From positions 44,519 to 108,518 of the forward strand of contig JAHDVX010000012.1 of assembly GCA_023382455.1 (NCBI GenBank): a stretch of DNA of 64,000 bases. The letters are read 5' to 3'. The notes beneath the pieces are model-generated. The model worked only from the letters and a program-made list of their open reading frames with translations, was not told the origin of the DNA and did no database searches. Each line of letters starts with the position of its first letter. Within the stretch, counting starts at the first letter, position 1. Positions 1 through 62,227 of this stretch are shown piece after piece. The position numbers and the translations under genes were made by a program. This DNA is from Flavobacteriales bacterium (GTDB lineage Bacteria > Bacteroidota > Bacteroidia > Flavobacteriales_F > PHOS-HE28).

Positions 1-3000
1 CGTGGCGATGGTGACGCTACCGCTGAGGACCAGGCTCGCGTTGTTGGCGCAGATGGTCTGGTCAGGGCCGGCGTCCGCCGTGGGCGCATCCGTGAAGGTG
101 ATCGTCATCTGGTCGCTGGACGCTGCGCACGCGCCGTTGCCGGTGGTGGTGAGCGTGAGCGTTACGCTGCCAGCCGCGATCTCAGCCGCCGTGGGCGTAT
201 ACACCGCGTTGGGGCTGGTGTTATTGGGGTTGTAGGTGCCCGCGCCGCCGCTCCACAGGATGCCCGTGGCAATGGTGTAGGAACCGGCCAGGGTGGTGGC
301 CGCGTTGTTCTGGCTCACCGATTGGTCGGGGCCGGCATTGGCCATGGGCGCCGGAGTGAAGGTCAGGGTGACGTTGTCGCTCACCGCTGCGCAGTTGTTG
401 TTGCCGGTGGTGGTGGCGGTCAGCGTCACCGAGTTGTTGGCGATCTCGATGGCCGAGGGCGTGTAGGTGATGTTCTGGGCGGTGCTGCCCGGGCTGTACA
501 GGCCGGTGCCGCCGCTCCACTGCACGCCGGTGGCCACGGTGATGGCCGCGTTCAGCACCGCGTTGGCGTTGTTGCCGCAGAGCGATTGGTCCGCGCCTGC
601 GTTCACCGTCGGCGCCGGCGTGATGGTGAAGGTCACCTGGTCGCTCACGGCGTTGCACAGGCCGTTGCCCGCGCTGGTGAGGGTGAGCGTCACGGTGCCC
701 GCGGCGATCTCCGCCGCGGTGGGCGTGTAGGTGGCGTTCAAGGTGATGCTGTTGGGGCTGAAGCTGCCGCTGCCGCCGCTCCACACGCCGCCGGTGGCGC
801 CGTTCACGGAGCCGTTCAGGCTGATGGCTGCATTGTTGGCGCACACCGTGCCGTCAGTACCCGCGTTCACGATGGGTGCGGGCGTGTAGGTGATGATGCG
901 CGTGTCGGTGGCGGGCGTGCAGGTGCCGTTGCCCGTGGTGGTCAAGGTGAGGGCCACCATGCCTGCGGCGATGTCGGCCGCGCTGGGCGTGTAGGTGGCG
1001 TTGAGCGTGTTGGCGTTGGGCGTGAAGATCCCCGAACCGCCGCTCCAGGTGCCGCCGGTGGCGATCATCACGCTGCCGTTCAGGGCCACGGCCGCGTTGT
1101 TGGCGCATACGGTCACGTCAGGCCCGGCATTGGCCGAGGGCGCATCGGTGAAGGCGAGCACCACCTGGTCGCTGGCCGCGTTGCACAGGCCGTTGCCCGT
1201 GGTGGTGAGCGTGAGTGTCACGTTTCCATTGGCGATCTCCGCCGCCGTGGGCGTGTACACCGCGCTCATGTTGTTGGCACCGGGGTTGTAGGTGCCGTTG
1301 CCGCCGCTCCACACGCCGCCCGTGGCCACGGTGAAGGCACCCGACAAGGTGACGTCGGGGTTGTTGGCGCACAGCGAACGGTCGGGGCCCGCATTGGCCG
1401 TGGGCGCCGGGGTGATGGTGAAGGACACCTGGTCGCTCACGGCGGAGCAGTTCCCATTGCCCACCGTGGTCAGCGTCAGGGTGACGCTGCCGGCGGTGCG
1501 TTCGGCCGCGCTGGGCGTGTACACCGCGTTCAGCGTGCCGCTGTTGGGGCTGTACGTGCCGGTACCGCCGCTCCAGATGCCGCCCGTGGCGCCATTTACC
1601 GTACCGTTGAGGGTGATGGCGGAGTTGTTCGCGCATACCGTGCCGTTCAGGCCGGCGTCCACGGTGGGGGCGGGCGTGAAGTTGATCACTTTGGTATCCC
1701 ATACCGCGAGGCAATTGCCATTGCCGGTACTGGTAAGCGTAAGGGTCAAGGTGTTCGCCGCCAACTCCGCCGCCGTGGGCGTGTAGGTGGCGTTCAGCGT
1801 GGTGTTGTTCGGGCTGAAGGAACCCGCGCCGCCGCTCCACACACCTCCGGTGGCACCGGAAACGGCACCGTTCAGCGCCACATTGGCGTTGTTCACGCAC
1901 AAGGTCACGTCAGCGCCCGCGTTCACCACCGGGGCGGGGGTGAAGTGCAGGGTCATTTGATCGCTGACCGCGAGGCAGTTGTTGTTGCCCGTGGTGGAGA
2001 GCGTGAGGGTGAGGTTGCCGCTGGCGATCTCCGCCGCCGTGGGCGTGTAGGTGGCCGTGGGGCTGGTGGCGCCGGGGCTGAAGGTGCCCGCGCCGCCGGT
2101 CCACACCACGCCGCTGGCCAGCGTGAAGCTGCCGTTGAGCGTGGCCGTCGGATTGTTGGCGCAGATGTTCTGGTCGGCACCGGCATTCACGGTGGGCGCC
2201 GGGGTGATGGTCCAGGTGATCTGGTCGCTTACGGCATTGCACAGGCCGTTGTTGGTGCTGGTCAGGGTGAGGGTCACCACGCCTGCGGCCTGTTCAGCCG
2301 CCGTGGGTGTGTAGGTGGCGTTCAATGTGTTGGCGTCGGGGCTGAAGGTGCCCGCGCCGGTCCAGGTGCCGCCGCCCGCGCCGGTCACGCTGCCGTTCAA
2401 GGGGATCGCCGGCAGGTTGGCGCACACGGTGCCGTTCGGTCCGGCATCCACCACCGGTGCCGGGGTGAAGGTGATCGTCTTTTGGTCGGTCACGGCCAGG
2501 CAGTTGCCGTTGCCCGTGGTCGTCAAGGTCAAGGTGAGGATGCCCGCGTTGATCTCGGCCGGGGTGGGCGCGTAGGTGGCGTTCAGGGCCGTGTTGTTCG
2601 GCGTGTAGGAGCCCAGGCCGCCGCTCCAGATGCCGCCGGAGGCCACGGCCACGCTGCCGCCCAAGGCCACGCTGGCATTGTTGGCGCACACGGTTGCGTC
2701 CGCACCGGCATTGGCCGTCGGGGCGCTGGTGAAGGTCAGGGTGACCTGGTCGCTCACCGCCACGCAGTTGTTGTTGCCGGTGGTGGTCAGGGTGAGCGTC
2801 ACGCTGCCGTTGGCCACTTCACTGGCCGTGGGCGTGTAGGTGGCGTTCACATTGTTCGCATCGGGGCTGAAGCTGCCCGCACCACCGCTCCACACGGCAC
2901 CGGTGGCCACGGTGAACGATCCCGCCAAGGTGGCCACGGGATTGTTGGAGCACAGGCTTTGGTCGGGGCCTGCATTCACCGTGGGCGCCGGGGTGATGGT

Positions 3001-6000
3001 CCAGGTCACGGGGTCGCTCACGGCATTGCAGCTGCCGTTTCCGGCACTGGTCAGTGTAAGGGTCACGGTGCCCGCCGTGCGCTCCGCGGCCGTGGGCGTG
3101 TACACCGCATTCAGCGTGAAGTTGTTCGGGCTGTAAGTGCCCGCCCCGCCGCTCCACACGCCGCCGGTGGCGCCGCTGACGCTGCCGTTGAGGTTCATGG
3201 CGGGCGCATTGGCGCACACCGTGCCGTCCGTGCCGGCATTCACCACCGGGGCCGGGGTGAAGGTGATCACTTTGCTGTCGGCCACGGCATTGCAGTTGCC
3301 GTTGCCGGTGGTGGTGAGGGTGAGCGTCAAGGTGCCGCCCGCCAGCTCCGCCGGGGTGGGCGTGTAGGTGGCGTTCAGCGTGGTGTTGTTCGGGGTAAAG
3401 GAACCCAGGCCGCCGCTCCATACGCCGCCGGTGGCCACGGTCACGCTGCCGTTCAGCGCCACGTTGGCGTTGTTCACGCACACGCTGGCGTCCGTGCCGG
3501 CATTCACCGTGGGGGCGGGCGTGAAGTTCAAGGTCACCTGGTCGGTCACCGCCATGCAGTTGTTGTTGCCGGTGGTGGTGAGGGTGAGCGTCACGCTGCC
3601 GTTGGCGATCTCGGCAGCCGTGGGCGTGTAGGTGGCCGTGGGGCTGGTGGCGTTGGGGCTGAAGGTGCCCGCGCCGCCGCTCCACACCACGCCGGTGGCC
3701 AGCGTGAAGCTGCCGTTGAGCGTGGCCGCCGCATTGTTCGAGCAGATGTTCTGGTCCGCGCCCGCATTCACGGTGGGCGCCGGGGTGATGGTGTAGGTCA
3801 CCTGGTCGCTTACCGCGTTGCACAGGCCGTTGCCGGTGCTGGTGAGGGTGAGGGTCACCGTGCCGGCCGCGCGCTCGGCGGCGCTGGGGGTATAGGTGGC
3901 ATTCAGCGTGTTGGCGTTCGGGCTGTAGGTGCCGGTGCCGCCGCTCCAGGTGCCGCCGCTGGCGCCGGTCACGCTGCCGCCCAGGCTGATGCCGGGCATG
4001 TTGGCGCATACCGTGCCGTTGGTGCCGGCATCCACCACGGGGGCCGGGGTGAAGGAGATCGCCACTTGGTCGGTGACCGCGTTGCAGTTGCCGTTGCCCG
4101 TGGTGGTGAGGGTGAGCGTAAGGATGCCCGCATTGATCTCGGCAGGCGTCGGGGCGTAGGTGGCGTTCAGGGCCGTGTTGTTCGGGGTGTACGATCCCGC
4201 GCCGCCGCTCCACACGCCGCCGGTGGCGATGGCCACGCTTCCGTTCAGGGATACGTTCGCGTTGTTGGCGCAGCGCGTCATGTCCGCACCGGCATTGGCC
4301 GTGGGCGCTGCCGTGAAGTGCAGGGTTACCTGGTCGCTCACGGCGTTGCACAGGCCGTTGCCCGTGGTGGTGAGGGTGAGTGTGACGAAACCGGCCGCCA
4401 CCTCCGCCGCGGTGGGCGTGTAGGTGGCGTTCATGCTGGTGTTGCCGGGGCTGTAGCTGCCCGCGCCGCCGCTCCACACGCCGCCGGTGGCCACGGTGTA
4501 GCTGCCGGCCAGGGTGGCCACGGCGTTGTTGGAGCAAATGTTCTGGTCGGGTCCGGCGTTCACCGTGGGGGCAGGCGTGATGGTCCACGTCACTTGGTCG
4601 CTTACGGCGTTGCAGGTGCCGTTGCCCGCGCTGGTGAGCGTGAGGGTCGCGGTACCTGCGGTGATCTCGGCTGCCGTGGGCGTGTACACCGCGTTGAGCG
4701 TGGTGTTGTTCGGGCTGTAGGAGCCCGCGCCGCCGCTCCAGATGCCGCCGGTGGCGCCCGTGATGGTGCCATTGAGGTTCATGGCGGGGGCGTTGGCGCA
4801 AACGGAGGCGTCCGCACCGGCATTCACCACCGGTGCCGGGGTGAAGGTGATGGTGCGGCTGCTGGAGGCGGGCAGGCAGGTGCCGTTGCCCGTGGTGGTC
4901 AGGGTCAAGGTCACCTGGCCCGCGGCGATCTCACCGGCCGTGGGCGTGTAGGTGGCGTTCAGGGTGGTGTTGTTCGGGCTGTAAGTGCCCAGGCCGCCGC
5001 TCCAGGCGCCGCCGGTGGCCACGGTCACGCTGCCGTTCAGGGCGATGTCGGCGTTGTTGGCGCATACCGAGCTGTTGGCCCCGGCATTGGCCGTTGGCGC
5101 CGCCGTGAAGGTCAGCAGTACTTGGTCGCTCACGGCACTGCACAGGCCGTTGCCGGTGGTGGTGAGGGTGAGGGTGGCGCTACCGCTGGCGATCTCGGCC
5201 GCACTGGGCGTGTAGCTGGCGTTCATGTTGGTGGTGCTGGGGTCGAAGCTGCCCGCGCCGCCGCTCCACACGCCGCCGGTGGCCACGGTGAAGCTGCCGT
5301 TGAGGGTCACCTCGGCGTTGTTGCCGCATACGGTGCGGTCCAGGCCGGCATTCACCGTGGGGGCGGGCGTGATGGTCCAGGTCACCTGGTCGCTCACGGC
5401 GTTGCAGGTGCCGTTGCCGGCGCTGGTGAGCGTGAGGGTCACGGTGCCCGCGGCGATCTCGGCGGCCGTGGGCGTGTACACGGCATTCAAGGTGGCGTTG
5501 TTCGGGCTGTAGCTGCCCGCGCCGCCGCTCCAGATGCCGCCGGTGGCACCGGTGACGCTGCCGTTGAGGTTCATGGCGGGCGCGTTGGCACATACGGAGG
5601 CGTTCACGCCCGCATCCACGATGGGCGCCGGCGTGAAGGTGATGGTGCGGCTGCTGCTCACGGGCGTGCAGTTGCCGTTGCCCGTGGAGGTGAGGATCAG
5701 GGTGACGCTTCCTGCGGCGATCTCACCGGCGGTGGGCGTGTAGGTTGCCGTCAAGGAGGTATTGCCCGGGGTGAAGGTGCCCAAACCGCCGCTCCAAATA
5801 CCGCCCGTGGCGCCGGCCACGTTGCCGTTCAGTGCGATGGCCGCATTGTTGGCGCACACCGAGCTATTGGCCCCGGCGTTCACCGAGGGTGCCGCCGTGT
5901 AGGCGATCACCACTTGGTCCACCACGGCGGCGCAGTTGCCGTTGCCGGTGGTGGTCAAGGTCAAGGTCACCGACCCGTTGGCGATCTCCGCGGCCGTGGG

Positions 6001-7470
6001 CGTGTAGGTGGCGGCCATGTTGGTGGTGCTGGGGTCGAAACTGCCCGCGCCACCGCTCCACACGCCGCCCGTGGCGATGGTGAAGCTGCCGTTGAGGTTG
6101 GCCACGGCGTTATTGGCGCACAGCGTCTGGTTGGCACCGGCATTGGCGGTGGGGGCGGGGGTGATCGTGTAGGTCACCTGGTCGCTCTCGGGGTTGCAGG
6201 TGCCGTTTCCGGTGGTGGTCAGGGTCAAGGTCACGCTTCCTGCGGCGATCTCCGCCGCGCTGGGGGTGTAGGTGGCGGTGAGGCTGTTGGCGTTGGGGCT
6301 GTAGGTGCCCGTGCCGCCGCTCCAAGTGCCGCCGGTGGCGCCGGTCACGCTGCCGTTCAGGCTGATGGCCGCCGCATTGGCGCACACCGTTCCGTTGGTG
6401 CCGGCATCCACGATGGGCGCAGGCGTGAAGGTGATGGTGCGGCTGCTGGTGGCGGGCAGGCAGTTGCCGTTTCCGGTGGTGGTCAGGGTGAGCGTTACCG
6501 AGCCGTTGCTGATCTCTGATGCGCTTGGCGTGTAGGTGGCGTTCAGCGTGGTGTTATTGGGGTTGTAGGTGCCGGTTCCGCCGCTCCAGATGCCGCCGGT
6601 GGCCACGGTCACACTGCCATTGAGGGCAATGGTCGCGTTGTTGGCGCATACTGAGCTGTTAGCGCCGGCATTGGCCGTGGGGGCAGCGGTGAAGTTGAGT
6701 AGCACCTGGTCGCTCACCACCACACAGTTGCCGTTTCCGGTGGTGGTCAGCGTCAAGGTCACACTGCCGTTGGCGATCTCGGTGGCCGTGGGCGTGTAGG
6801 TGGCGTGGAGGTTGGTGGTGCTGGGGTCGAAGGTGCCCGCGCCGCCGCTCCAGATGCCGCCGGTGGCCACGGTGATGGTGCCGTTGAGCGAGGCCACGGG
6901 GTTATTGGCGCACAGCGTTTGGTCAGGTCCGGCATTCACCGTGGGGGCCGGGGTGAAGGTCACGAGCAGGCTGTCCTTCACCGCGCTGCATACGCCGTTG
7001 CCGGTGCTGGTGAGGTAGATCCACATGGAACCCGCCGCCAGCTCCGCCGCCGTGGGCGTGTAGGTGGCATTCAGGTTGGAGTTGGAGGGCAGGAAGGGAT
7101 TGGCACCGCCGGTCCACACGCCACCCACGGCATTCAGCACGCTGCCTGCCAAGTTCACCGTGGGTGCGCTGGTGCACACCTGCTGGTCCGGCCCGGCGTT
7201 GGTGATGGGCTTGGGCTGCAGCGTAAGGATCATCTCATCGAACTCCGGCGTGCAGGGCCCGGTGGAGGTGAGACGCAGGGTGACGCCGCCCAGGGCGATG
7301 TCGCCGATGCTGGGCTCATAAGTGGCGTTGAGGGCCGTGGCACTGGGCTGGAATACGCCGCTGCCCGTGGTGGTCCAAATGCCGGTGGTGCTTCCGCCGG
7401 AGACCGTTCCGGTGAGCGATGCGGATTCCCCCGCACACAGGGTCTGGTCGGTACCTGCGCTCACATCGAT
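1..7470 (-). repeat. Coding tandem-repeat array. Unit ~264 bp (231-297), three unit types (TVNAG / TANAG / IVDAG) forming a ~792-bp higher-order repeat, >=9 supercycles
   Basis: Plus-strand antisense mini-ORFs in the track recur at 264/792-bp spacing (467, 1259, 2051, 2840, 3632, 4424, 5216, ~6008, 6800). Translated units are ~75-85% identical within type. Confidence 0.85.
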
Positions 7471-14814: not shown

Positions 14815-15594
14815 ATGGCCTACCAGAACATCCTGATCACCGATGCCGACGGCATCCGCACCATCACCATCAACCGCCCCGACCAGCTGAATGCGTTGAA
14901 CAGGGATACCATCAACGAACTTGACCAGGCGCTGACCGAGGCCGAGGCCGACAAAACCGTGCGCGTGCTCATCCTTACAGGCAGCGGCCCCAAGGCCTTC
15001 GTGGCGGGCGCGGACATCAAGGAATTCGCACATTTCAGCGTGGCCGATGGCAAAGCCCTCAGTGCCGACGGGCACCGCAAGCTCTTCGACCATGTGGAGC
15101 AGCTGAACAAACCGGTGATCGCCGCGGTGAACGGCTTCGCGCTGGGCGGTGGCCTGGAACTGGCCATGAGCTGCCACTTCCGCGTGGCCAGCGACAACGC
15201 GCGCATGGGCCTGCCGGAGACCAGCCTGGGCGTGATCCCCGGCTACGGCGGCACGCAGCGCCTGGCCCGCCTGGTGGGCAAGGGCAAGGCCATGGAAATG
15301 ATCTTCACCGCCGGCATGATCAAGGCGGACGAGGCCCTGCAATGGGGCTTGGTGAACCACGTTGTACCCCAGGACCAGCTGCTGGCCAGGTGCAACGAGC
15401 TGGCCGCCGCCATCCTGAAGAACTCACCCACCGCCCTGGCCGCCGCCATCCGTGCGGTGAATGCCGGCTTCGAGCCCGGTGCCGACGGCATGCAGCGCGA
15501 GATCGAGGAGTTCGGCAAATGCTTCGGCACCGCCGATTTCAAGGAGGGCACCACGGCCTTCATGGAGAAGCGCAAGGCGGTGTTCAAGGGGTAG
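14815..15594 (+). CDS. Enoyl-CoA hydratase/isomerase (crotonase family)
   Basis: PVIAAVNGFALGGGLELAMSCHFRVAS..GLPETSLGVIPGYGGTQRL crotonase signature. Confidence 0.9.
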   Translation: MAYQNILITDADGIRTITINRPDQLNALNRDTINELDQALTEAEADKTVRVLILTGSGPKAFVAGADIKEFAHFSVADGKALSADGHRKLFDHVEQLNKPVIAAVNGFALGGGLELAMSCHFRVASDNARMGLPETSLGVIPGYGGTQRLARLVGKGKAMEMIFTAGMIKADEALQWGLVNHVVPQDQLLARCNELAAAILKNSPTALAAAIRAVNAGFEPGADGMQREIEEFGKCFGTADFKEGTTAFMEKRKAVFKG

Positions 15595-15598
15595 CAGG

Positions 15599-15696
15599 AC
15601 CACGGATGCACACGGATAAACACGGATCCATGTGTTTGGCACGGAGAGCTGGTCAACCCTCTTGCCCATCCGTGTGCATCCGTGTTGATCCGTGGT
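15599..15696. promoter_or_regulatory. Imperfect long inverted repeat built from three 10-bp-phased ACACGGAT units per arm, in the intergenic region upstream of the flippase gene
   Basis: aCCACGGATgcACACGGATaaACACGGATcc ...45 nt... ccATCCGTGTgcATCCGTGTtgATCCGTGG. Confidence 0.5.
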
Positions 15697-15706
15697 TCCC
15701 GCAATC

Positions 15707-17194
15707 ATGAGCGTGCTGCGCAAACTCGCCGGCCAAACGGCCATCTACGGGGCCAGCAGCATCGTTGCGCGCTTCCTCAACTACCTGCTGACGCCGCTGT
15801 ATACCAGCCGGGGCGTGTTCGCGCCGGCGGCCTTCGGGGTCATCACCTCGCTCTACGCCTGGACGGCCTTCCTGAACGTGGTGCTCACCTACGGCATGGA
15901 GACCACGTATTTCCGCTTCGCCACCAAGCACCGCGACAACCCGCGGATCTTCGCCACCTCCGCCTGGTTGCTGGCCTTCACCAGCAGCGTGTTCATCACC
16001 GTGGGGCTGCTGTGCGCGCGGTCCATCGCCGAGGCCATCGGCTATCCGGAACAGGTGTTCTCCGTGCGGATGCTCATCGCCATCATCGGTGTGGAGGCCG
16101 CCACGGCCGTGCCCTTGGCCAGCCTGCGGCTGAAGGAGCGGCCCTGGAAGTTCGCGGGGGTGAACATCCTCAGCGTGCTGGTGACCGTGGTGGGCAACCT
16201 CTTCATCTTCCTGTACTGCAAGCCCCGCTTCGATGCCGGCAACCCCGACGCGCTGGTGCAGGCCGTGTACGACCCCGCCATCGGCGTGGGCTACGTGTTC
16301 CTGATCAACCTGATCGGCTCGGCGGTGAAGTTCCTGTTGCTGCTGCCCGAGTGGCCCGCCCCGCACCTGGGCCGCAAGGATACCGGCTTCGATGCCAAGC
16401 TGCTGCGGCCCATGCTCGCCTTCGGGCTGCCGCTGCTGGTGGCCGGCCTGGCGGGCATGACCAACGAGACCGCCGACCGCGTGCTGATGAAGCACCTGCT
16501 GCCTGCCGACGTGGCCGATGCGCAGATCGGCATCTACGGCGCCTCCTACAAGCTGGCCATCCTGATCACGCTCTTCATCCAGGCCTTCCGCTTCGCCGCG
16601 GAACCCTTCTTCTTCAGCCACGCCAAGGAGAAGGACAGCCGGGAGACCTTCGCCCGCATCATGAACATCTTCGTGGCCGTGTGCATGGGCGCCTTCCTGC
16701 TGGTGATGCTCTTCCTGGACCTGTTCCGCTGGTTCATCCCCAACCCGGCGTACTGGCCCGGCCTGGTGGTGGTGCCCATCCTGATGATGGCCAACGTGTT
16801 CCTGGGCATCTACTACAACCAGAGCGTGTGGTACAAGCTGAGCGACCGCACGCGCGCCGGCAGCACCATCTCCATCATCGGCGCGGTGATCACCTTGGTG
16901 CTGCTCTTCTGGTGGATCCCGATGTTCGGCTACATCGGCGCAGCCTGGGCCACCTTCATCTGCTACGCCGCCATGGCCGTGGTGAGCTACGTGTGGGGCC
17001 AGAAGCACTACCCCGTTCCGTACAACGTGCGGCGGGTGCTGGGCTACATGGCCGGTGGCGTGTTCCTGTGGTGGGCCTGTGAGCAGTTGCCGCTGGAAGG
17101 TGCCTTGAAATACGCCCTGCGCGCCGTGGCCTTGCTGGGCTTCTTGGCCACGGCGTGGAAGCTTGAGAGCGCACCGGGGAAGAAGAGCGCGTGA
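15707..17194 (+). CDS. Polysaccharide biosynthesis protein / oligosaccharide flippase (Wzx-like, MOP superfamily)
   Basis: ~12-14 predicted TM helices; MSVLRKLAGQTAIYGASSIVARFLNYLLTPLYT matches the polysaccharide-biosynthesis flippase N-terminus. Confidence 0.75.
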   Translation: MSVLRKLAGQTAIYGASSIVARFLNYLLTPLYTSRGVFAPAAFGVITSLYAWTAFLNVVLTYGMETTYFRFATKHRDNPRIFATSAWLLAFTSSVFITVGLLCARSIAEAIGYPEQVFSVRMLIAIIGVEAATAVPLASLRLKERPWKFAGVNILSVLVTVVGNLFIFLYCKPRFDAGNPDALVQAVYDPAIGVGYVFLINLIGSAVKFLLLLPEWPAPHLGRKDTGFDAKLLRPMLAFGLPLLVAGLAGMTNETADRVLMKHLLPADVADAQIGIYGASYKLAILITLFIQAFRFAAEPFFFSHAKEKDSRETFARIMNIFVAVCMGAFLLVMLFLDLFRWFIPNPAYWPGLVVVPILMMANVFLGIYYNQSVWYKLSDRTRAGSTISIIGAVITLVLLFWWIPMFGYIGAAWATFICYAAMAVVSYVWGQKHYPVPYNVRRVLGYMAGGVFLWWACEQLPLEGALKYALRAVALLGFLATAWKLESAPGKKSA

Positions 17195-19699: not shown

Positions 19700-20073
19700 A
19701 TAATGGGACCAGGGTCCCACTCTGGCGCGAGCGTCCTCCGCTCGTGCCTCTCGCCGGCTTGCCTCTACGTCTCATCGCATTCAAACCCCAGTTGCGAATT
19801 GGCACTGCTCCACATATAGGCCGTTTCATCGGTGACCAAGCCTGCGCGTAATGGATGCTCGCGAAGGTAGCGCCTCCGCTGCTCAAGCAGCTCCGTAGAA
19901 TGGCACGAGCGCCCTTTGCCCAATTGCTTCTACGCCTCATCGTATTCAAACCCCGGATGCGGAATGGCACTGCTCCACATATAGGCCGTTTCATCGGTGA
20001 CCAAGCCTGCGCGTAATGGATTCTCGCGAGGGTAGCGTCTCCGCTGCTCAAGCAGCTCCGTTGAATGGCACGT
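19700..20073. repeat. Non-coding element bounded by 14-bp terminal inverted repeats (CTGGCGCGAGCGTC / GACGCTCGCGCCAG) containing two ~160-bp tandem copies (~90% identical)
   Basis: Unit 1 ~19751-19902, unit 2 ~19914-20073. Each has an internal palindrome GCTGCTCAAGCAGC. The only ORF (19629..20051) is just a translation of the repeat. Confidence 0.7.
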
Positions 20074-20344
20074 GCGGAAGACGCTCGCGCCAGTTTTGGG
20101 GCGGACCCATGACCGATGTTATTGAACCACCGGATCCGGAAGTGAGCCCAAGGCTCGCCGACGCCCCCCGGCTATGCATCCGCGCCCTCGTTGCCTTGCG
20201 GTTCCGGCAAGTTCACCACCTTGCATTCGGGGTACATGCCGCCCGGTGCCCCATGAAGCATGGCTCGGTTGTCGTGCACGGCGCCGTGGATCCGGTACAC
20301 CGCGATGCGGCATGCGGGCATTGGCCGTACGCTCCTTGCCGCGA

Positions 20345-40226: not shown

Positions 40227-42059
40227 TCAGTTTTCCGTGTGCGCTGTGCCGCTGTGGTGATTACCTGAAATGCCCAGCCCGTTCCACAGCGCCTCCGCCT
40301 TCTTCGCGCCGATCTCCTGCGCCACTTCTTCCGGCTTGGCCTCGCGGATGCCCTGGATGGAGCCGAAGCGATGGAGCAGCTTTTGCGTGGTGGCAGGGCC
40401 GATGCCGGCGATGTCCTCCAGGCCGGTGCGCACGGTGCGCTTGCTGCGCTTGCCGCGGTGGTGCGTGATGCCGAAGCGGTGCGCCTCGTTGCGCATCTGC
40501 TGGATCAGCCGCAGGCTGGTGCTGCGCTTGTCGATGTGCAGCGGATAGGGATCGCCGGGGAAGAAGATCTCCTCTAAGTTCTTGGCGATGCCCACCAGGG
40601 CCACCTTGCCGCGCAGGCCTAAGCGGTCGAACACGTTGAGCGCGGAGTGCAGCTGGCCCTTGCCGCCGTCGATCACCACCAATTGCGGCAACGGATCGCC
40701 CTCGGTGAGCAGGCGGGAGTAGCGCCGCTCCACGGCCTCTTCCATGCTGGCGAAATCGTCCGGCCCCTGCACGGTGCGGATGTTGAAGTGGCGGTAATCC
40801 TTCTTGCTGGGCTTGGCGTCCTTGAACACCACGCAGGCGCTCACCGGGTCGGTGCCCTGGGTGTTGCTGTTGTCGAAGCACTCGATGTGGCGCGGCAATT
40901 CGGTGAGGCGCAGGTCCTGCTTCAGTTGTTCCAGCACGCGGTCCGTGGCGGCCTCCGGGTCCACCAAGGCTTCCTGCTTCTGCTTCTCCAGCATGAAGTA
41001 GTGGGCGTTACGCTCGCCCATCTCCAGCAGGTGCTTTTTGTCGCCGCGCTGCGGTAGTGTGAAGGCGATGCCGGGCATCTCGATGCCGGGATCCATGGGC
41101 ACCACCGCCTCCGGCGCGTTGCTGCGGAAGCGCTGGCGCAGATCGGCGATGGCATATTGCAGCACCTCGTCGTCGGGCTCGTCCAGCCGGCGCTTCAGTT
41201 CCACGGTCACGCCGTGCACCACCGCGCCGTCGATCACCCGCATGTAGTTCACGAAGCTGCTGTGGGTGTTGCGTGCCAGGGCGAACACGTCCACGTCGCC
41301 CACGGTGGGGCTCACCACGGTGCTGCGCGCCTGGTATTTTTCCAACTGCTCCGCCTGCGCGCGGGCTTCTTCGGCCTCCTCGAACTCCAGTTTTTCGGCG
41401 TGCTCCAGCATGCGCTGCCGGAGGATCTTCACCACGCTGCCGATGCGCCCCTTGAGGATCTGCCGGGCCTGCGCCACGTTGGCGTTGTAGTCCTCCTCGC
41501 GCTGCAGGCCCTCGCACGGCCCGCGGCAATTGCCCATGTGCCATTCCAGGCAGCGCTTGTACTTGCCCTTGGCCACGTTCCCCGGGCTGAGGTCGTAGTT
41601 GCAGGTGCGCAGCTTGTACAGCTGGTGCACCAGCTTCAAGGCGGTGCGCATGGCGCCGGCCGAGGCGAAGGGCCCGATGTACTCCGAGCCGTCGTCCACG
41701 GGGTTGCGCATGCCCTCGATGCGCGGGTAGTGCTCGTTGCGGATGCGGATCCACGGGTAGCTCTTGTCGTCCTTCAGCAGGATGTTGTACCGCGGCTGGC
41801 ATTCCTTGATCAGCGAATTCTCCAGCAGCAGCGCATCATAGGGCGTTTCGGTGACGATGGTGCGCAGGTCGGCGATCTTGGCCACCAGCAGGCGTGTCTT
41901 GCCGTCGGGATGCTGCTTGGCGAAGTAGCTGCCCACGCGGCTTCGCAGGCTGGTGGCCTTGCCCACGTAGAGGATCTTCCCCTCGCCGTCGAAGAACTGG
42001 TACACGCCGGGCTTGGCGGGCAACAGGCGCACCTTGTCGCGGACATCGAGGGCGTTCAT
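40227..42059 (-). CDS. uvrC: Excinuclease ABC subunit C
   Basis: GIY-YIG N-terminus (PGVYQFFDGEGKILYVGKA), UvrBC-interaction and C-terminal HhH regions. Confidence 0.95.
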   Translation of the reverse strand: MNALDVRDKVRLLPAKPGVYQFFDGEGKILYVGKATSLRSRVGSYFAKQHPDGKTRLLVAKIADLRTIVTETPYDALLLENSLIKECQPRYNILLKDDKSYPWIRIRNEHYPRIEGMRNPVDDGSEYIGPFASAGAMRTALKLVHQLYKLRTCNYDLSPGNVAKGKYKRCLEWHMGNCRGPCEGLQREEDYNANVAQARQILKGRIGSVVKILRQRMLEHAEKLEFEEAEEARAQAEQLEKYQARSTVVSPTVGDVDVFALARNTHSSFVNYMRVIDGAVVHGVTVELKRRLDEPDDEVLQYAIADLRQRFRSNAPEAVVPMDPGIEMPGIAFTLPQRGDKKHLLEMGERNAHYFMLEKQKQEALVDPEAATDRVLEQLKQDLRLTELPRHIECFDNSNTQGTDPVSACVVFKDAKPSKKDYRHFNIRTVQGPDDFASMEEAVERRYSRLLTEGDPLPQLVVIDGGKGQLHSALNVFDRLGLRGKVALVGIAKNLEEIFFPGDPYPLHIDKRSTSLRLIQQMRNEAHRFGITHHRGKRSKRTVRTGLEDIAGIGPATTQKLLHRFGSIQGIREAKPEEVAQEIGAKKAEALWNGLGISGNHHSGTAHTEN

Positions 42060-60290: not shown

Positions 60291-60339
60291 CTCTTTCCGA
60301 CGTATGCGGCGAAGATACTCTAGGCTTGCAGGCTCGCTC

Positions 60340-60540
60340 TTCCTTGGTACTACGGACGGACACTGGCCTTGCTTCGCCGAAGGCTTCGCGAAGGCGCAGT
60401 GGACACGGATGCTGCTTCGGAAGGGAATTGGACCTTTGGTGAATTGCTTTCACCGATCCAGCGGATGGCACCGATAAGGGAAAGTCTCGCAGGCTCGCTG
60501 GGGGTTGTAACCACGGATAGACACCGATGAACACGGATGG
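60340..60540. repeat. Intergenic cluster of ACACGGAT-type motifs including a 10-bp-phased triplet (60509-60540), plus a ~100-bp internal direct duplication, upstream of scoA
   Basis: aACCACGGATagACACCGATgaACACGGATgg; additional copies GGACACGGATG and ACTACGGACGGACACTGG; duplicated gcaggctcgct... blocks. Confidence 0.5.
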
Positions 60541-60623
60541 TGCTGCGGGTGCGTATTGGCTCTTTGGCGAATTGCTTCATGTGCACTTTGGCCGCTAGTC
60601 TTTTTGGCCAATTGATACTTCCC

Positions 60624-61643
60624 TCATCGCCACTGCACCGCCACCTTGCCGATGCTTTTCCCCGATCCGAGCAGTTTCAGGGCTTGCGGCAATTGGTCCG
60701 CGGTGAAGGGCGGATGCACGCGCGGCTTCAATGAGCCGGTCCGCAAGGCCCCGAGGGCTTCCCGCATGCACGTGGCCACCAGCTGGGGCTTGCGTTCGCT
60801 GAGGCGAAGCATGTTCACACCGATCAGGCTTTTGCTTTTCATCATCAGGAAGATGGGCACCACGAGGCCCATGTTCCACACGAAGCGCAGCGTGCCGAAG
60901 GTGCCGCCTGCGCCGCGTTCCGCGCCGCCGAAGAGCACGAGCCTGCCGCCGCTGCCCAGCAGCCGCAGGTCCTTCTTGAAGGTGGTGCCGCCCACCGCAT
61001 TGAAGCTCACGTCCAGGCGTGCACCGCCGAGCAGCCGTTGCACCTGCTCCGCATAGTCGCCTTTGGTGCGGTCAATGGCATGCTGCACACCGAGCTGTTT
61101 CAAGTAGGCAAGCTTTTCCGCTCCCCCGGCCACGGCGAAGACCTCGCAACCCGCCTGGGCCGCGAGCTGCACCAGCAACTGTCCCACGCCGCCAGCGGCG
61201 CTGTGCACCAGTACGCGGTCGCCGCGTTCCGGGCGGGTGATCCAGCGGGCCATGTACCAGGCGGTGGCACCTTGCGTGGCCATGGCCAGCGCGGCGCCGA
61301 GGGGCATGTCGTCGGGGATCTCGGCCACGGCGCGGTGGTCCGTGCAGGCCAGTTGGGCATAGCCGCCGAAGCGGGTGAAGGCCAGTACGCGCTTGCCCAA
61401 GAACTCCTTCGGCACGCCTTCTCCAAGGCCCTCTACACGGCCCACCACCTCGTAGCCGAGCACGCACGGCGGCTTGGGCGCATCGCGGTACAGGCCCTTC
61501 ACGGCCATGGTATCCGCGTAGTTCAGTCCGAAGGCTTCGCTGCGGATCAGCACCTCCTGTTCGCCCGGCATGGGGTCCGGCAGTTCGCGTAGCACCAGGG
61601 CCTTCGCAGCATCACCGGTGGAGATCTGTTGCCAGGCTTTCAT
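60624..61643 (-). CDS. Zinc-binding/MDR-family quinone oxidoreductase
   Basis: GxGxxG NAD(P) motif LVHSAAGGVGQLLVQLA; GroES-like N-terminal domain. Confidence 0.85.
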   Translation of the reverse strand: MKAWQQISTGDAAKALVLRELPDPMPGEQEVLIRSEAFGLNYADTMAVKGLYRDAPKPPCVLGYEVVGRVEGLGEGVPKEFLGKRVLAFTRFGGYAQLACTDHRAVAEIPDDMPLGAALAMATQGATAWYMARWITRPERGDRVLVHSAAGGVGQLLVQLAAQAGCEVFAVAGGAEKLAYLKQLGVQHAIDRTKGDYAEQVQRLLGGARLDVSFNAVGGTTFKKDLRLLGSGGRLVLFGGAERGAGGTFGTLRFVWNMGLVVPIFLMMKSKSLIGVNMLRLSERKPQLVATCMREALGALRTGSLKPRVHPPFTADQLPQALKLLGSGKSIGKVAVQWR

Positions 61644-61667: not shown

Positions 61668-62000
61668 TCAACGAAGGATCAACAATCCTGTGGATGCATC
61701 CCTGTCAAAGGCCTCAAGGGTTTCCATATTCCCCAAGATGATGTCCAACCATTCCGCCGTGGTATGGTTGTCCATGGACAAAACAACCACCTTGGGTGGC
61801 ATGCCGTGCAGCACGCTCATTTCCACGAAATCGTCATCCTGTGTCAGGATGGTAAACCCTTCGCTTTTAGCGATCTCCCAGATCTTGCTATCCGGCCGGG
61901 AGGTCAACTGCAATGGTTTCACATGGGTTGTATCGGGAAACGCATGATCGAGGTGCCTGACCAGCTTGTCCGACAAGTTCTCGCCGATCAGGAACTTCAT
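61668..62000 (-). CDS. DUF5615-family PIN-like protein (toxin-like partner of DUF433)
   Basis: MKFLIGENLS...ILTQDDDF typical DUF5615. Confidence 0.8.
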   Translation of the reverse strand: MKFLIGENLSDKLVRHLDHAFPDTTHVKPLQLTSRPDSKIWEIAKSEGFTILTQDDDFVEMSVLHGMPPKVVVLSMDNHTTAEWLDIILGNMETLEAFDRDASTGLLILR

Positions 62001-62227
62001 GCCGCTGAAGGCACAATGCTGGTGTGGCGTTCGCGATCAGCCGCATACGCCAAGCAGGCACGGATATCCTCCTCCGTCAGCTCATCAAAATCCGCGAGGA
62101 TCTCCTGAATGCCCATGCCGCTTGCCAGATAGCCCAGCACATCGCCCACAGTGATGCGCAGGCCACGAATGCACGGTTTGCCGCTGCGCTTCCCGGGTTC
62201 AATGGTGATGATCTTGCGGTAGTCCAT
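61997..62227 (-). CDS. DUF433 domain protein (antitoxin-like partner)
   Basis: GKPCIRGLRITVGDVLGYLASGMGIQEILADFDELTEEDIRACLAYAA; ATGA overlap with the downstream gene. Confidence 0.8.
   Translation of the reverse strand: MDYRKIITIEPGKRSGKPCIRGLRITVGDVLGYLASGMGIQEILADFDELTEEDIRACLAYAADRERHTSIVPSAA

Follow-up and report, generated by a model that had tools for sequence, protein, structure and literature searches.

Why is the flippase-like gene of a member of the Flavobacteriales preceded by two arrays of the same short motif, three copies each, evenly spaced and facing each other, and why does a similar array occur again upstream of a scoA-like gene? The question arises from a stretch of 64,000 nucleotides (nt) of contig JAHDVX010000012.1, which is called "the window" in the following. 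The original prediction had read these arrays as operators at two promoters under a common regulator of the response-regulator or AraC type and had mentioned a "dispersed REP-like element" (REP, repetitive extragenic palindromic sequence) only as the alternative. This alternative was supported and could be refined: the arrays are probably copies of a dispersed, horizontally spread palindromic element, the full form of which carries a gene for a nuclease of the GxxExxY family between its two arms, and the copies in the window are gene-less.

The first locus is the gap between an enoyl-CoA hydratase open reading frame (ORF) and the flippase-like (Polysacc_synt_3) ORF. It consists of inverted (C/A)CACGGAT triplets at an exact period of 10 bp with a 40-nt loop between them (Table 1). 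Direct reading of the sequence confirmed the two three-unit arrays upstream of the flippase gene, their 10-bp spacing, and their inverted orientation; the spacer, given before as 45 nt, had to be corrected to 40 nt, and the predicted heptamer unit held for the inner units, ACACGGAT, but not for the outermost unit in both arms, which is CCACGGAT. The element takes up nearly all of the 112 nt (15595-15706) separating the two ORFs. Its 5' arm starts 5 nt past the TAG stop codon (15592-15594) of the hydratase ORF, and its 3' arm, behind which the sequence continues with ttcccgcaatcATG, ends 11 nt short of the ATG (15707) of the flippase-like ORF.

The second locus is a 333-nt gap between the stop of an alcohol dehydrogenase (ADH)-like ORF (60624..61643, minus strand) and the start of the scoA-like ORF (60290, minus strand). 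A near-identical triplet plus extra single copies had been announced for this region; the triplet proper is at 60511-60538, accompanied by a degenerate triplet and one single unit. All units at this locus share one orientation, the solo arm has no inverted partner inside the intergenic gap, and it is located 218 nt upstream of the scoA start. It lies in a mosaic of tandem duplications, with one pair of segments (60400-60449 and 60528-60577) 80% identical over 50 nt and carrying a ACACGGAT unit at the start of each copy, and a second pair (60322-60363 and 60483-60524) 71% identical over 42 nt. The four contigs spanning this locus in a strain comparison were 99% identical.

Table 1. Units, arms, and loop of the heptad arrays at the two loci of the window
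Locus	Feature	Position	Strand	Composition
1	5' arm	15600..15627	+	CCACGGAT-gc-ACACGGAT-aa-ACACGGAT; three heptads, exact 10-bp period; units 15600-15607 CCACGGAT, 15610-15617 ACACGGAT, 15620-15627 ACACGGAT
1	Loop (spacer)	15628..15667		40 nt, no ORF, not similar to the loops of other copies
1	3' arm	15668..15695	-	ATCCGTGT-gc-ATCCGTGT-tg-ATCCGTGG; inverted copy of the 5' arm; units 15668-15675 ATCCGTGT, 15678-15685 ATCCGTGT, 15688-15695 ATCCGTGG
2	Mosaic	60322..60577	+	Tandemly duplicated 42- to 50-nt segments carrying arms
2	Single unit	60403-60410		Same orientation as the other units of this locus
2	Degenerate arm	60450..60475	+	9-bp period, CACCGAT-cc-AGCGGAT-gg-CACCGAT (CACCGATccAGCGGATggCACCGAT); found by a generalized CRCNGAT chain finder
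2	Solo arm	60508..60538	+	(aa)CCACGGAT-ag-ACACCGAT-ga-ACACGGAT; triplet proper CCACGGATagACACCGATgaACACGGAT

The arrays at both loci are far beyond what chance would give. The heptad-containing unit ACACGGAT occurred 7 times in the 64 kb against an expectation of 1.78, a count reached by none of 100 shuffles. A two-unit pattern with up to 3 mismatches yielded 6 matches instead of the expected 0.36, every one of them at one of the two loci. When the 64 kb were scanned for any heptamer repeated three times at a period of 9 to 11 bp, the matches with a period of 10 bp were only the three arrays, and the sole other match was an unrelated GC-rich stretch (40425-40449) with a period of 9 bp.

The same architecture is widespread. 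The pattern CACGGAT-N3-CACGGAT-N3-CACGGAT was searched for in one genome per species, and the family statistics given below are those of the matches listed. Three heptads at a 10-bp period were found in at least 120 stretches of genome sequence, which represent more than 10 phyla, where about 0.3 would be expected by chance according to a rough estimate of our own (21 specified bases, about 1.2e12 positions on both strands, uniform composition). They include Acidobacteriota, Verrucomicrobiota, Planctomycetota, several proteobacterial classes, Bacteroidota, Nitrospirota, Gemmatimonadota, and Spirochaetia. Isolates also carry arrays, among them Gloeothece PCC 7424 with a solo arm, and several metagenome-assembled genomes (MAGs) were matched on two contigs each. 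Carrier genomes possess about one further cluster per 42 kb, compared with two loci in the 64 kb of the window. Three units per array are the rule (219 of 250 arrays), and paired arms converge (CRCNGAT ... ATCNGYG) in 78 pairs versus 2 apparent exceptions that are merely cluster neighbors. Many of the loci have a plus/minus pair of arms 20 to 100 nt apart, as in the window; solo arms make up about 40% of the arrays (94 of about 250), and tandem clusters of solo arms like that of the second locus occur also in the genome stretches L024, L050, L072, and L113.

A position matrix of 316 arms reads tt-R-R-C, followed by CACGGAT gaA CACGGAT gaA CACGGAT. The base preceding the outer unit is a C in 77% of the arms and that preceding the inner units an A (75% and 68%), so that arm ends read (A/G)(A/G)C-CACGGAT; the palindrome reaches only 2 to 3 nt past the outer heptad. 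Within the heptad, the five positions C1, C3, G5, A6, and T7 are near-invariant across the phyla. The window arms belong to this family. An nhmmer profile built from the 316 arms of other genomes, with the window left out, matched 15598-15627 (plus strand, E = 1.8e-8), 15668-15697 (minus strand, E = 3.1e-8), and 60508-60538 (plus strand, E = 3.9e-7), and the next match had an E value of only 1.4. All three follow the rules of the family with respect to the number of units, the 10-bp period, and the preceding C or A, and the arms of the first locus converge.

Across the family, the elements are intergenic and hug stop codons, with the arm starting at a median of 17 nt after the stop codon. According to crude ORF calls, 43 gene contexts could be classified, 22 of them co-directional, 13 convergent, and 8 divergent. 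A test of the orientation of solo arms relative to genes gave no discrimination when based on start codons, and 54 versus 24 when based on stop codons, a skew that decayed partner arms can explain. The loops of 93 two-armed elements fell into two kinds, mostly 3 to 200 nt without a gene or 374 to 562 nt with a GxxExxY gene.

This gene is the only recurrent neighbor of the arrays. An all-against-all BLAST comparison of the ORFs from the 120 listed loci found unrelated neighbors save one small protein of about 130 amino acids (aa) in 5 loci, which was identified as GxxExxY (PF13366, PDDEXK_3, E = 1e-34 to 1e-40; TIGR04256). Five of the six GxxExxY ORFs in the array-selected loci sit exactly between the inverted arms. 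When 234 ORFs located inside solo or long-loop arms were scanned with Pfam, PDDEXK_3 was the sole recurrent family; four-helix-bundle intervening sequence (IVS) proteins, considered as alternative cargo, were not among these ORFs. The association holds in the reverse direction as well. In 80 metagenome loci that had been fetched with a GxxExxY alignment, CRCNGAT arrays were located upstream and ATCNGYG arrays downstream of nearly every GxxExxY gene. Under a strict CRCNGAT rule, arrays were present on both sides of 40 of 70 genes and on one side of another 13, compared to 11 arrays in 87.7 kb as background. When GxxExxY genes of metagenomes and isolates were tested without the motif, 58 of 76 had a significant inverted repeat between their flanks. 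A Desulfobacterales genome provided the transition between the two kinds of loop: the 132- to 142-nt loop at L047 6464-6660 codes for a GxxExxY protein that is truncated after its first 35 residues (E = 2.6e-8). This locus is a deletion intermediate between the gene-bearing and the gene-less form, and its truncated gene indicates that gene-less hairpins can arise by internal deletion.

The type of array appears to follow the clade of the protein. On finished isolate replicons, the GxxExxY gene is bracketed by other unit types, CACAGAG with a 9-bp period in Bacteroides finegoldii, CGCGAAG, between fabD and fabG, in Sphingomonas parapaucimobilis, and GGACTGAAGAA with an 11-bp period in Gemmatirosa kalamazoonensis. 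The Nitrospirota contig L107 contains two GxxExxY paralogues 1.2 kb apart that are 35% identical. The paralogue at 1143-1640 has CACAGAG arrays with a 9-bp period and is closest (45%) to the B. finegoldii protein, the arrays of which are of this type as well; the other paralogue has CACGGAT arrays with a 10-bp period and is 77% and 50% identical to GAT-array proteins from other phyla. Arrays with a 9-bp period concentrate in one block of the protein tree, in which many arrays are too weak to be classified, and are the usual form around one GxxExxY clade, mostly on low-GC contigs. The two paralogues and the block in the tree together indicate that array type appears to track the protein clade and not the host, and this appears to fit a cognate pair of protein and site that travels horizontally.

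Related arrays were seen beside the main type. Sister arrays composed of CGCAGAG, CACAGAG, or CACGGAG units, again as inverted hairpins with a period of 9 to 10 bp, occur at L015 7480-7590, L073 ~230-290, L021 ~4380-4470, and in the flanks of L220, and a hairpin of this sister type is sometimes nested within the loop of a CACGGAT hairpin. Inside the mosaic of the second window locus, GC-rich mini-palindromes with a period of 11, GCTTCGCCGAAG and CTTCGCGAAG, are located at 60371-60395; they resemble the CGCGAAG-type units flanking the Sphingomonas GxxExxY gene, which may be a coincidence. One site of the complete element is shared by eight related metagenome contigs (L129, L130, L133, L136, L138, L139, L181, and L198), where it lies between a gene with a product ending in ..EFYLxx* and a gene with a product beginning with MRIGYGWDSHEF, possibly ispF. 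The GxxExxY proteins of this group match those of Terriglobales MAGs. The identical site in these contigs suggests long vertical persistence at an operon-internal position.

The GxxExxY family is large, with more than 8,000 clusters retrieved. In the open-access literature, PDDEXK_3 was found only as a family of unknown function with "multiple transfers, mixed clades" (PMC3424549). The residues E34, D73, and Q97 never vary, and E83 and K85 hardly do. An AlphaFold2 model computed from an alignment of 80 diverse sequences reached a predicted local distance difference test (pLDDT) value of 87.6, while a shallow alignment had given 57, and it displays the canonical alpha-beta-beta-beta-alpha-beta core. 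From these residues and this model, the protein looks like an active nuclease that has kept its PD-(D/E)XK active site. Its structural neighbors are weak (template modeling [TM] scores of 0.4 to 0.5) and comprise Cas4 SSO0001, lambda exonuclease, and Hjc; PADLOC reported only a weak similarity to Cas4, a PDB sequence search found no homologue, and a PHROGs search found no match.

Some of the arms are translated. In loci L121 to L139 and L198 and in proteins P0121 to P0240, the conserved C-terminal tail of Terriglobales GxxExxY proteins, ..KKIRENPCKSVA or ..RKKIRENPCKSVAGVSA, is the 3' arm translated in frame, and in other clades, the ORF continues in frame and without a stop through the 5' arm (..RMNTD..). 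Translation in such clades may start at an ATG located inside a heptad (GGATGAA), and the N-terminal MNTD.. extensions of deposited GxxExxY proteins are apparently translated arm sequence.

The following picture would account for these data. The complete form of the element is probably composed of three phased CRCNGAT heptads, a GxxExxY gene for a PD-(D/E)XK nuclease of about 130 aa, and three inverted heptads. Since the window contains no GxxExxY gene, 15600-15695 is probably a gene-less, two-armed hairpin derivative in an operon-internal gap and 60508-60538 a solo arm within a locally duplicated mosaic. Each heptad may bind one GxxExxY protomer, with three sites at about one helical turn placed on one face of the duplex, and the nuclease, encoded in cis or, in trans, at another place in the genome, would maintain or spread the arms. 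It would thus act on them as RAYT acts on REP or REPIN sequences, albeit as an enzyme with a restriction endonuclease fold. An effect of the hairpin on the hydratase-flippase transcript, if there is any, would be a by-product.

Several observations weigh against this picture. Target-site duplications are absent, and direct repeats flanking 93 elements were no longer than those of an offset control. The loops of the copies differ in length, and no sequence shared among them was found, which means that there is no sign of a recent copy-and-paste event from a master element. L047 was the only deletion intermediate among 40 loops tested. A GxxExxY ORF was absent from the 64-kb window, which has no fragment of one either, from the loci of its relatives, and from 67 arm-carrying viral stretches, so that a protein acting in trans on the window copies is assumed. 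Moreover, co-inheritance of a gene with its flanks can mimic co-evolution of protein and site. Two further points come from the hydratase-flippase junction of relatives and from phage-like contigs. The family hairpin is usually kept at this junction, albeit with a different period and in different detail, and this could indicate a function at the level of the host. The phage-like contigs carry co-oriented solo arms, which is not predicted by a model of purely selfish DNA; they could reflect a role at the transcript level or a strand-biased mode of insertion that uses single-stranded DNA.

The relatives of the hydratase gene (85 to 93% identical, all named ones from uncultured high-GC Flavobacteriales) have a variable junction. 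Those with 85% identity possess a 3+3 hairpin with a 9-bp period in an 87-nt gap, those with 89% identity four-unit arms spaced 9-9-10, as around many GxxExxY genes on low-GC contigs, and those with 93% identity (L205/206) a 9-bp hairpin and 800 additional bp. Other relatives retain a one-unit remnant together with a ParDE cassette or have unrelated insertions without an array. Repeated turnover at a site that is permissive or a hot spot would agree with this variation. In this lineage of Flavobacteriales, the junction (15595-15706 in the window, ~2784-3990 in L205-L216) is a hot spot for insertions, with ParD/ParE cassettes (L210-212, L216) and small membrane-protein-like ORFs (L209, L216) in relatives; in L210, the 5' end of the flippase gene is duplicated.

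In the phage-like IMG/VR contigs L276, L268, L253, and L238 (with the identifiers UViG_3300009285_005437, 3300037067_012809, and 3300009285_002914), 5 to 7 solo CACGGAT arms each were found, nearly all of them co-oriented per contig. They are placed where two genes meet, with a ribosome-binding site and a start codon directly downstream. The arms of L268 are followed by a second direct array of the CACGAAG type. No GxxExxY gene was found in the fetched stretches of these contigs, and the arm consensus had no match in a collection of cultured phages.

The alternative that survives best places the function in the RNA. The hairpin would have been selected as an intercistronic terminator or attenuator, as an RNase III processing site, or as a stabilizer of 3' ends, as proposed for REP sequences, and the GxxExxY genes would be parasites homing into such hairpins. 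This is unlikely, although it would explain the tight gaps between co-directional genes with a median of 17 nt past the stop codon, the hairpin kept at an orthologous junction in several relatives, the uniform orientation of the solo arms at gene junctions of the phage-like contigs, and the fact that arms far outnumber GxxExxY genes. The transcript of the first locus is predicted to fold into a strong hairpin of three 8-bp helices with a free energy of -57 kcal/mol (z = -4.8), but the 2x2 linkers between the helices are unpaired; the region of the second locus has no excess stability (z = -0.09). About 40% of the arrays cannot form a hairpin at all, being solo arms.

The distinction between DNA sites and an RNA helix can be made at the variable positions of paired arms. 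Linkers were complementary at 54% of the mirrored versus 50% of the non-mirrored positions, and the variable heptad positions formed 305 Watson-Crick pairs in the mirrored register versus 303 otherwise. When elements with a gene were read on their sense strand, G·U mismatches were as frequent as A·C mismatches, with 16 each. Thus, no register-specific covariation between arms was found, and without complementarity in the mirrored register, the units behave as independent copies of a 10-mer consensus arranged in inverted blocks. Such blocks have the potential to form a hairpin automatically. This comparison points to arms that are sites for a sequence-reading protein on the DNA and not a selected RNA helix. 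Five near-invariant heptad positions across phyla also call for a sequence reader, and no universal host RNA-binding factor with specificity for this heptad is known. There was no match to Rfam at the gathering threshold for the window and 20 family loci, and a permissive Rfam scan of the locus yielded only chance matches to microRNA (miRNA) hairpins. An intrinsic terminator was rejected, with no T-run behind the stem-loop and 0 terminator-like sites in 15450-15850. CsrA-binding GGA sites or a TwoAYGGAY motif were also considered and rejected, as most of the sites would lie inside a helix and there was no Rfam match.

Operator arrays of a transcription factor common to the flippase and scoA promoters are very improbable by comparison. 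Both window copies are indeed upstream of a start codon, and direct repeats about one helical turn apart resemble OmpR/PhoB- or AraC-type sites. The arrays differ from such operators in how they are distributed among genomes, in where they lie with respect to genes, and in being associated with a nuclease gene. The same architecture stands beside unrelated genes in more than 10 phyla, none of them conserved save GxxExxY, and a response-regulator or AraC-type factor is not supported. The shared regulator of two promoters fared no better: the arrays come right after stop codons and frequently between convergent genes (13 of the 43 classifiable contexts), the distance from arm to arm ranges from 3 to about 560 nt, neither a promoter-like site nor promoter-like hexamers were found beside the copy at the first locus, and the arm at 60508-60538 is 218 nt upstream of the scoA start and within a duplicated mosaic. 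Other heptad-like sites were tried and rejected as well, MraZ boxes for their sequence and genomic context, DnaA boxes for their sequence, and iterons of the omega/CtsR type for their sequence and taxa. Chance or a microsatellite made by replication slippage, with no family relationship between the arrays, can practically be dismissed, since the many short, low-score arrays that Tandem Repeats Finder reported in this GC-rich window stand against counts never reached by shuffles, a unit number fixed at three instead of being variable, an inverted partner, an outer-unit signature, and identity across phyla.

Returning to the dispersed element with its GxxExxY gene, its best analogue is the REPIN-RAYT system, with a different enzyme. 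Both have short palindromic repeats outside genes, doublets of inverted arms that surround a spacer and can form a hairpin, a cognate protein gene that is itself flanked by inverted repeats, no target-site duplication, and a location after gene ends. REP sequences occur in many copies per genome; for the arrays, the counts are the two loci of the window and about one further cluster per 42 kb in carrier genomes. RAYT genes are usually present in a single copy per REP family, and in this the two systems differ, since at least one contig (L107) has two GxxExxY genes within 2 kb. According to an overview of REP and RAYT (PMC3733652), one end of the palindrome carries a conserved tetranucleotide, GTAG or CGTC. 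The arms described here are without such a tag. They consist of three phased heptads, in contrast to the single imperfect palindrome of 20 to 40 nt of a REP sequence, and their heptad is common to many phyla, while REP sequences are species-specific. The partner is a PD-(D/E)XK nuclease and not an HUH/Y1 transposase, and no Y1 (RAYT) transposase was found in the Pfam scan of the 234 ORFs interior to arms.

Other known systems share single features. Miniature inverted-repeat transposable elements (MITEs) such as Correia, RUP, and Nezha are also intergenic, have terminal inverted repeats, and are gene-less derivatives of a gene-carrying element, for which L047 is the intermediate here. They differ by their target-site duplication and by the DDE transposase of the parent element, and the internal sequences of the copies are unrelated here, with only L047 keeping a remnant of the parent gene. 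The ends of Mu (L1-L3/R1-R3) and the TnsB-bound ends of Tn7 are likewise built from three direct repeats per end, with the ends mutually inverted, and this layout and the heptad arms both suggest a multi-protomer complex per arm. The sites of Mu and Tn7 are about 20 to 22 bp long and are bound by large DDE transposases plus accessory proteins; here, the units have 7 bp and a period of 9 to 10 bp, and the sole protein encoded by the element is a minimal nuclease domain. Bacterial interspersed mosaic elements (BIMEs) of Escherichia coli resemble the second window locus and L024, L050, L072, and L113, in which arms plus small palindromes form duplicated mosaics, but the sequences differ, and there is no evidence here for binding of IHF or gyrase. 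Free-standing genes for PD-(D/E)XK homing endonucleases like I-Ssp6803I and the ORF-bearing IVS of 23S rRNA genes have in common a small selfish ORF between inverted repeats. A nuclease fold like that of a homing endonuclease could start copying by break repair. The elements described here have no intron, intein, or rRNA context, however; their insertion sites are diverse intergenic gaps, and the four-helix-bundle IVS protein was not found inside the arms.

Other features of the window are recorded for completeness. A tandem array at 38-7084 has a period of 264 bp and 26.7 copies with 68% matches and probably encodes a giant repetitive protein of the Ig-like or adhesin type. A 165-bp tandem repeat with 1.9 copies that are 92% identical is located at 19759-20076. 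Just upstream of the ADH and scoA genes, at ~61668-62227 on the minus strand, is a DUF433/DUF5615 (PIN-like) pair, known from gene calls of the near-identical contigs L201-L204, which is a probable toxin-antitoxin module.

A wider claim is put forward more tentatively. GxxExxY proteins may be the cognate enzymes of REPIN-like elements that are independent of RAYT, have not been described before, and occur in more than 10 phyla; the heptads might be binding sites of the nuclease, arms plus nuclease a self-propagating or homing unit, and the gene-less hairpins its non-autonomous progeny. No paper or Rfam entry on phased heptad arrays around GxxExxY genes was found in the open-access literature, and an earlier description elsewhere is possible. 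If the claim is true, it would give a widespread family of nucleases of unknown function its first directly testable function. It would also add to REPIN-RAYT a second, mechanistically different case of repeats with a dedicated enzyme, and it would account for a type of hairpin located between genes in Acidobacteriota, Verrucomicrobiota, Planctomycetota, Bacteroidota, and others. In practice, the arrays leak into protein annotation, and they can be mistaken for operators, as happened in the original prediction.

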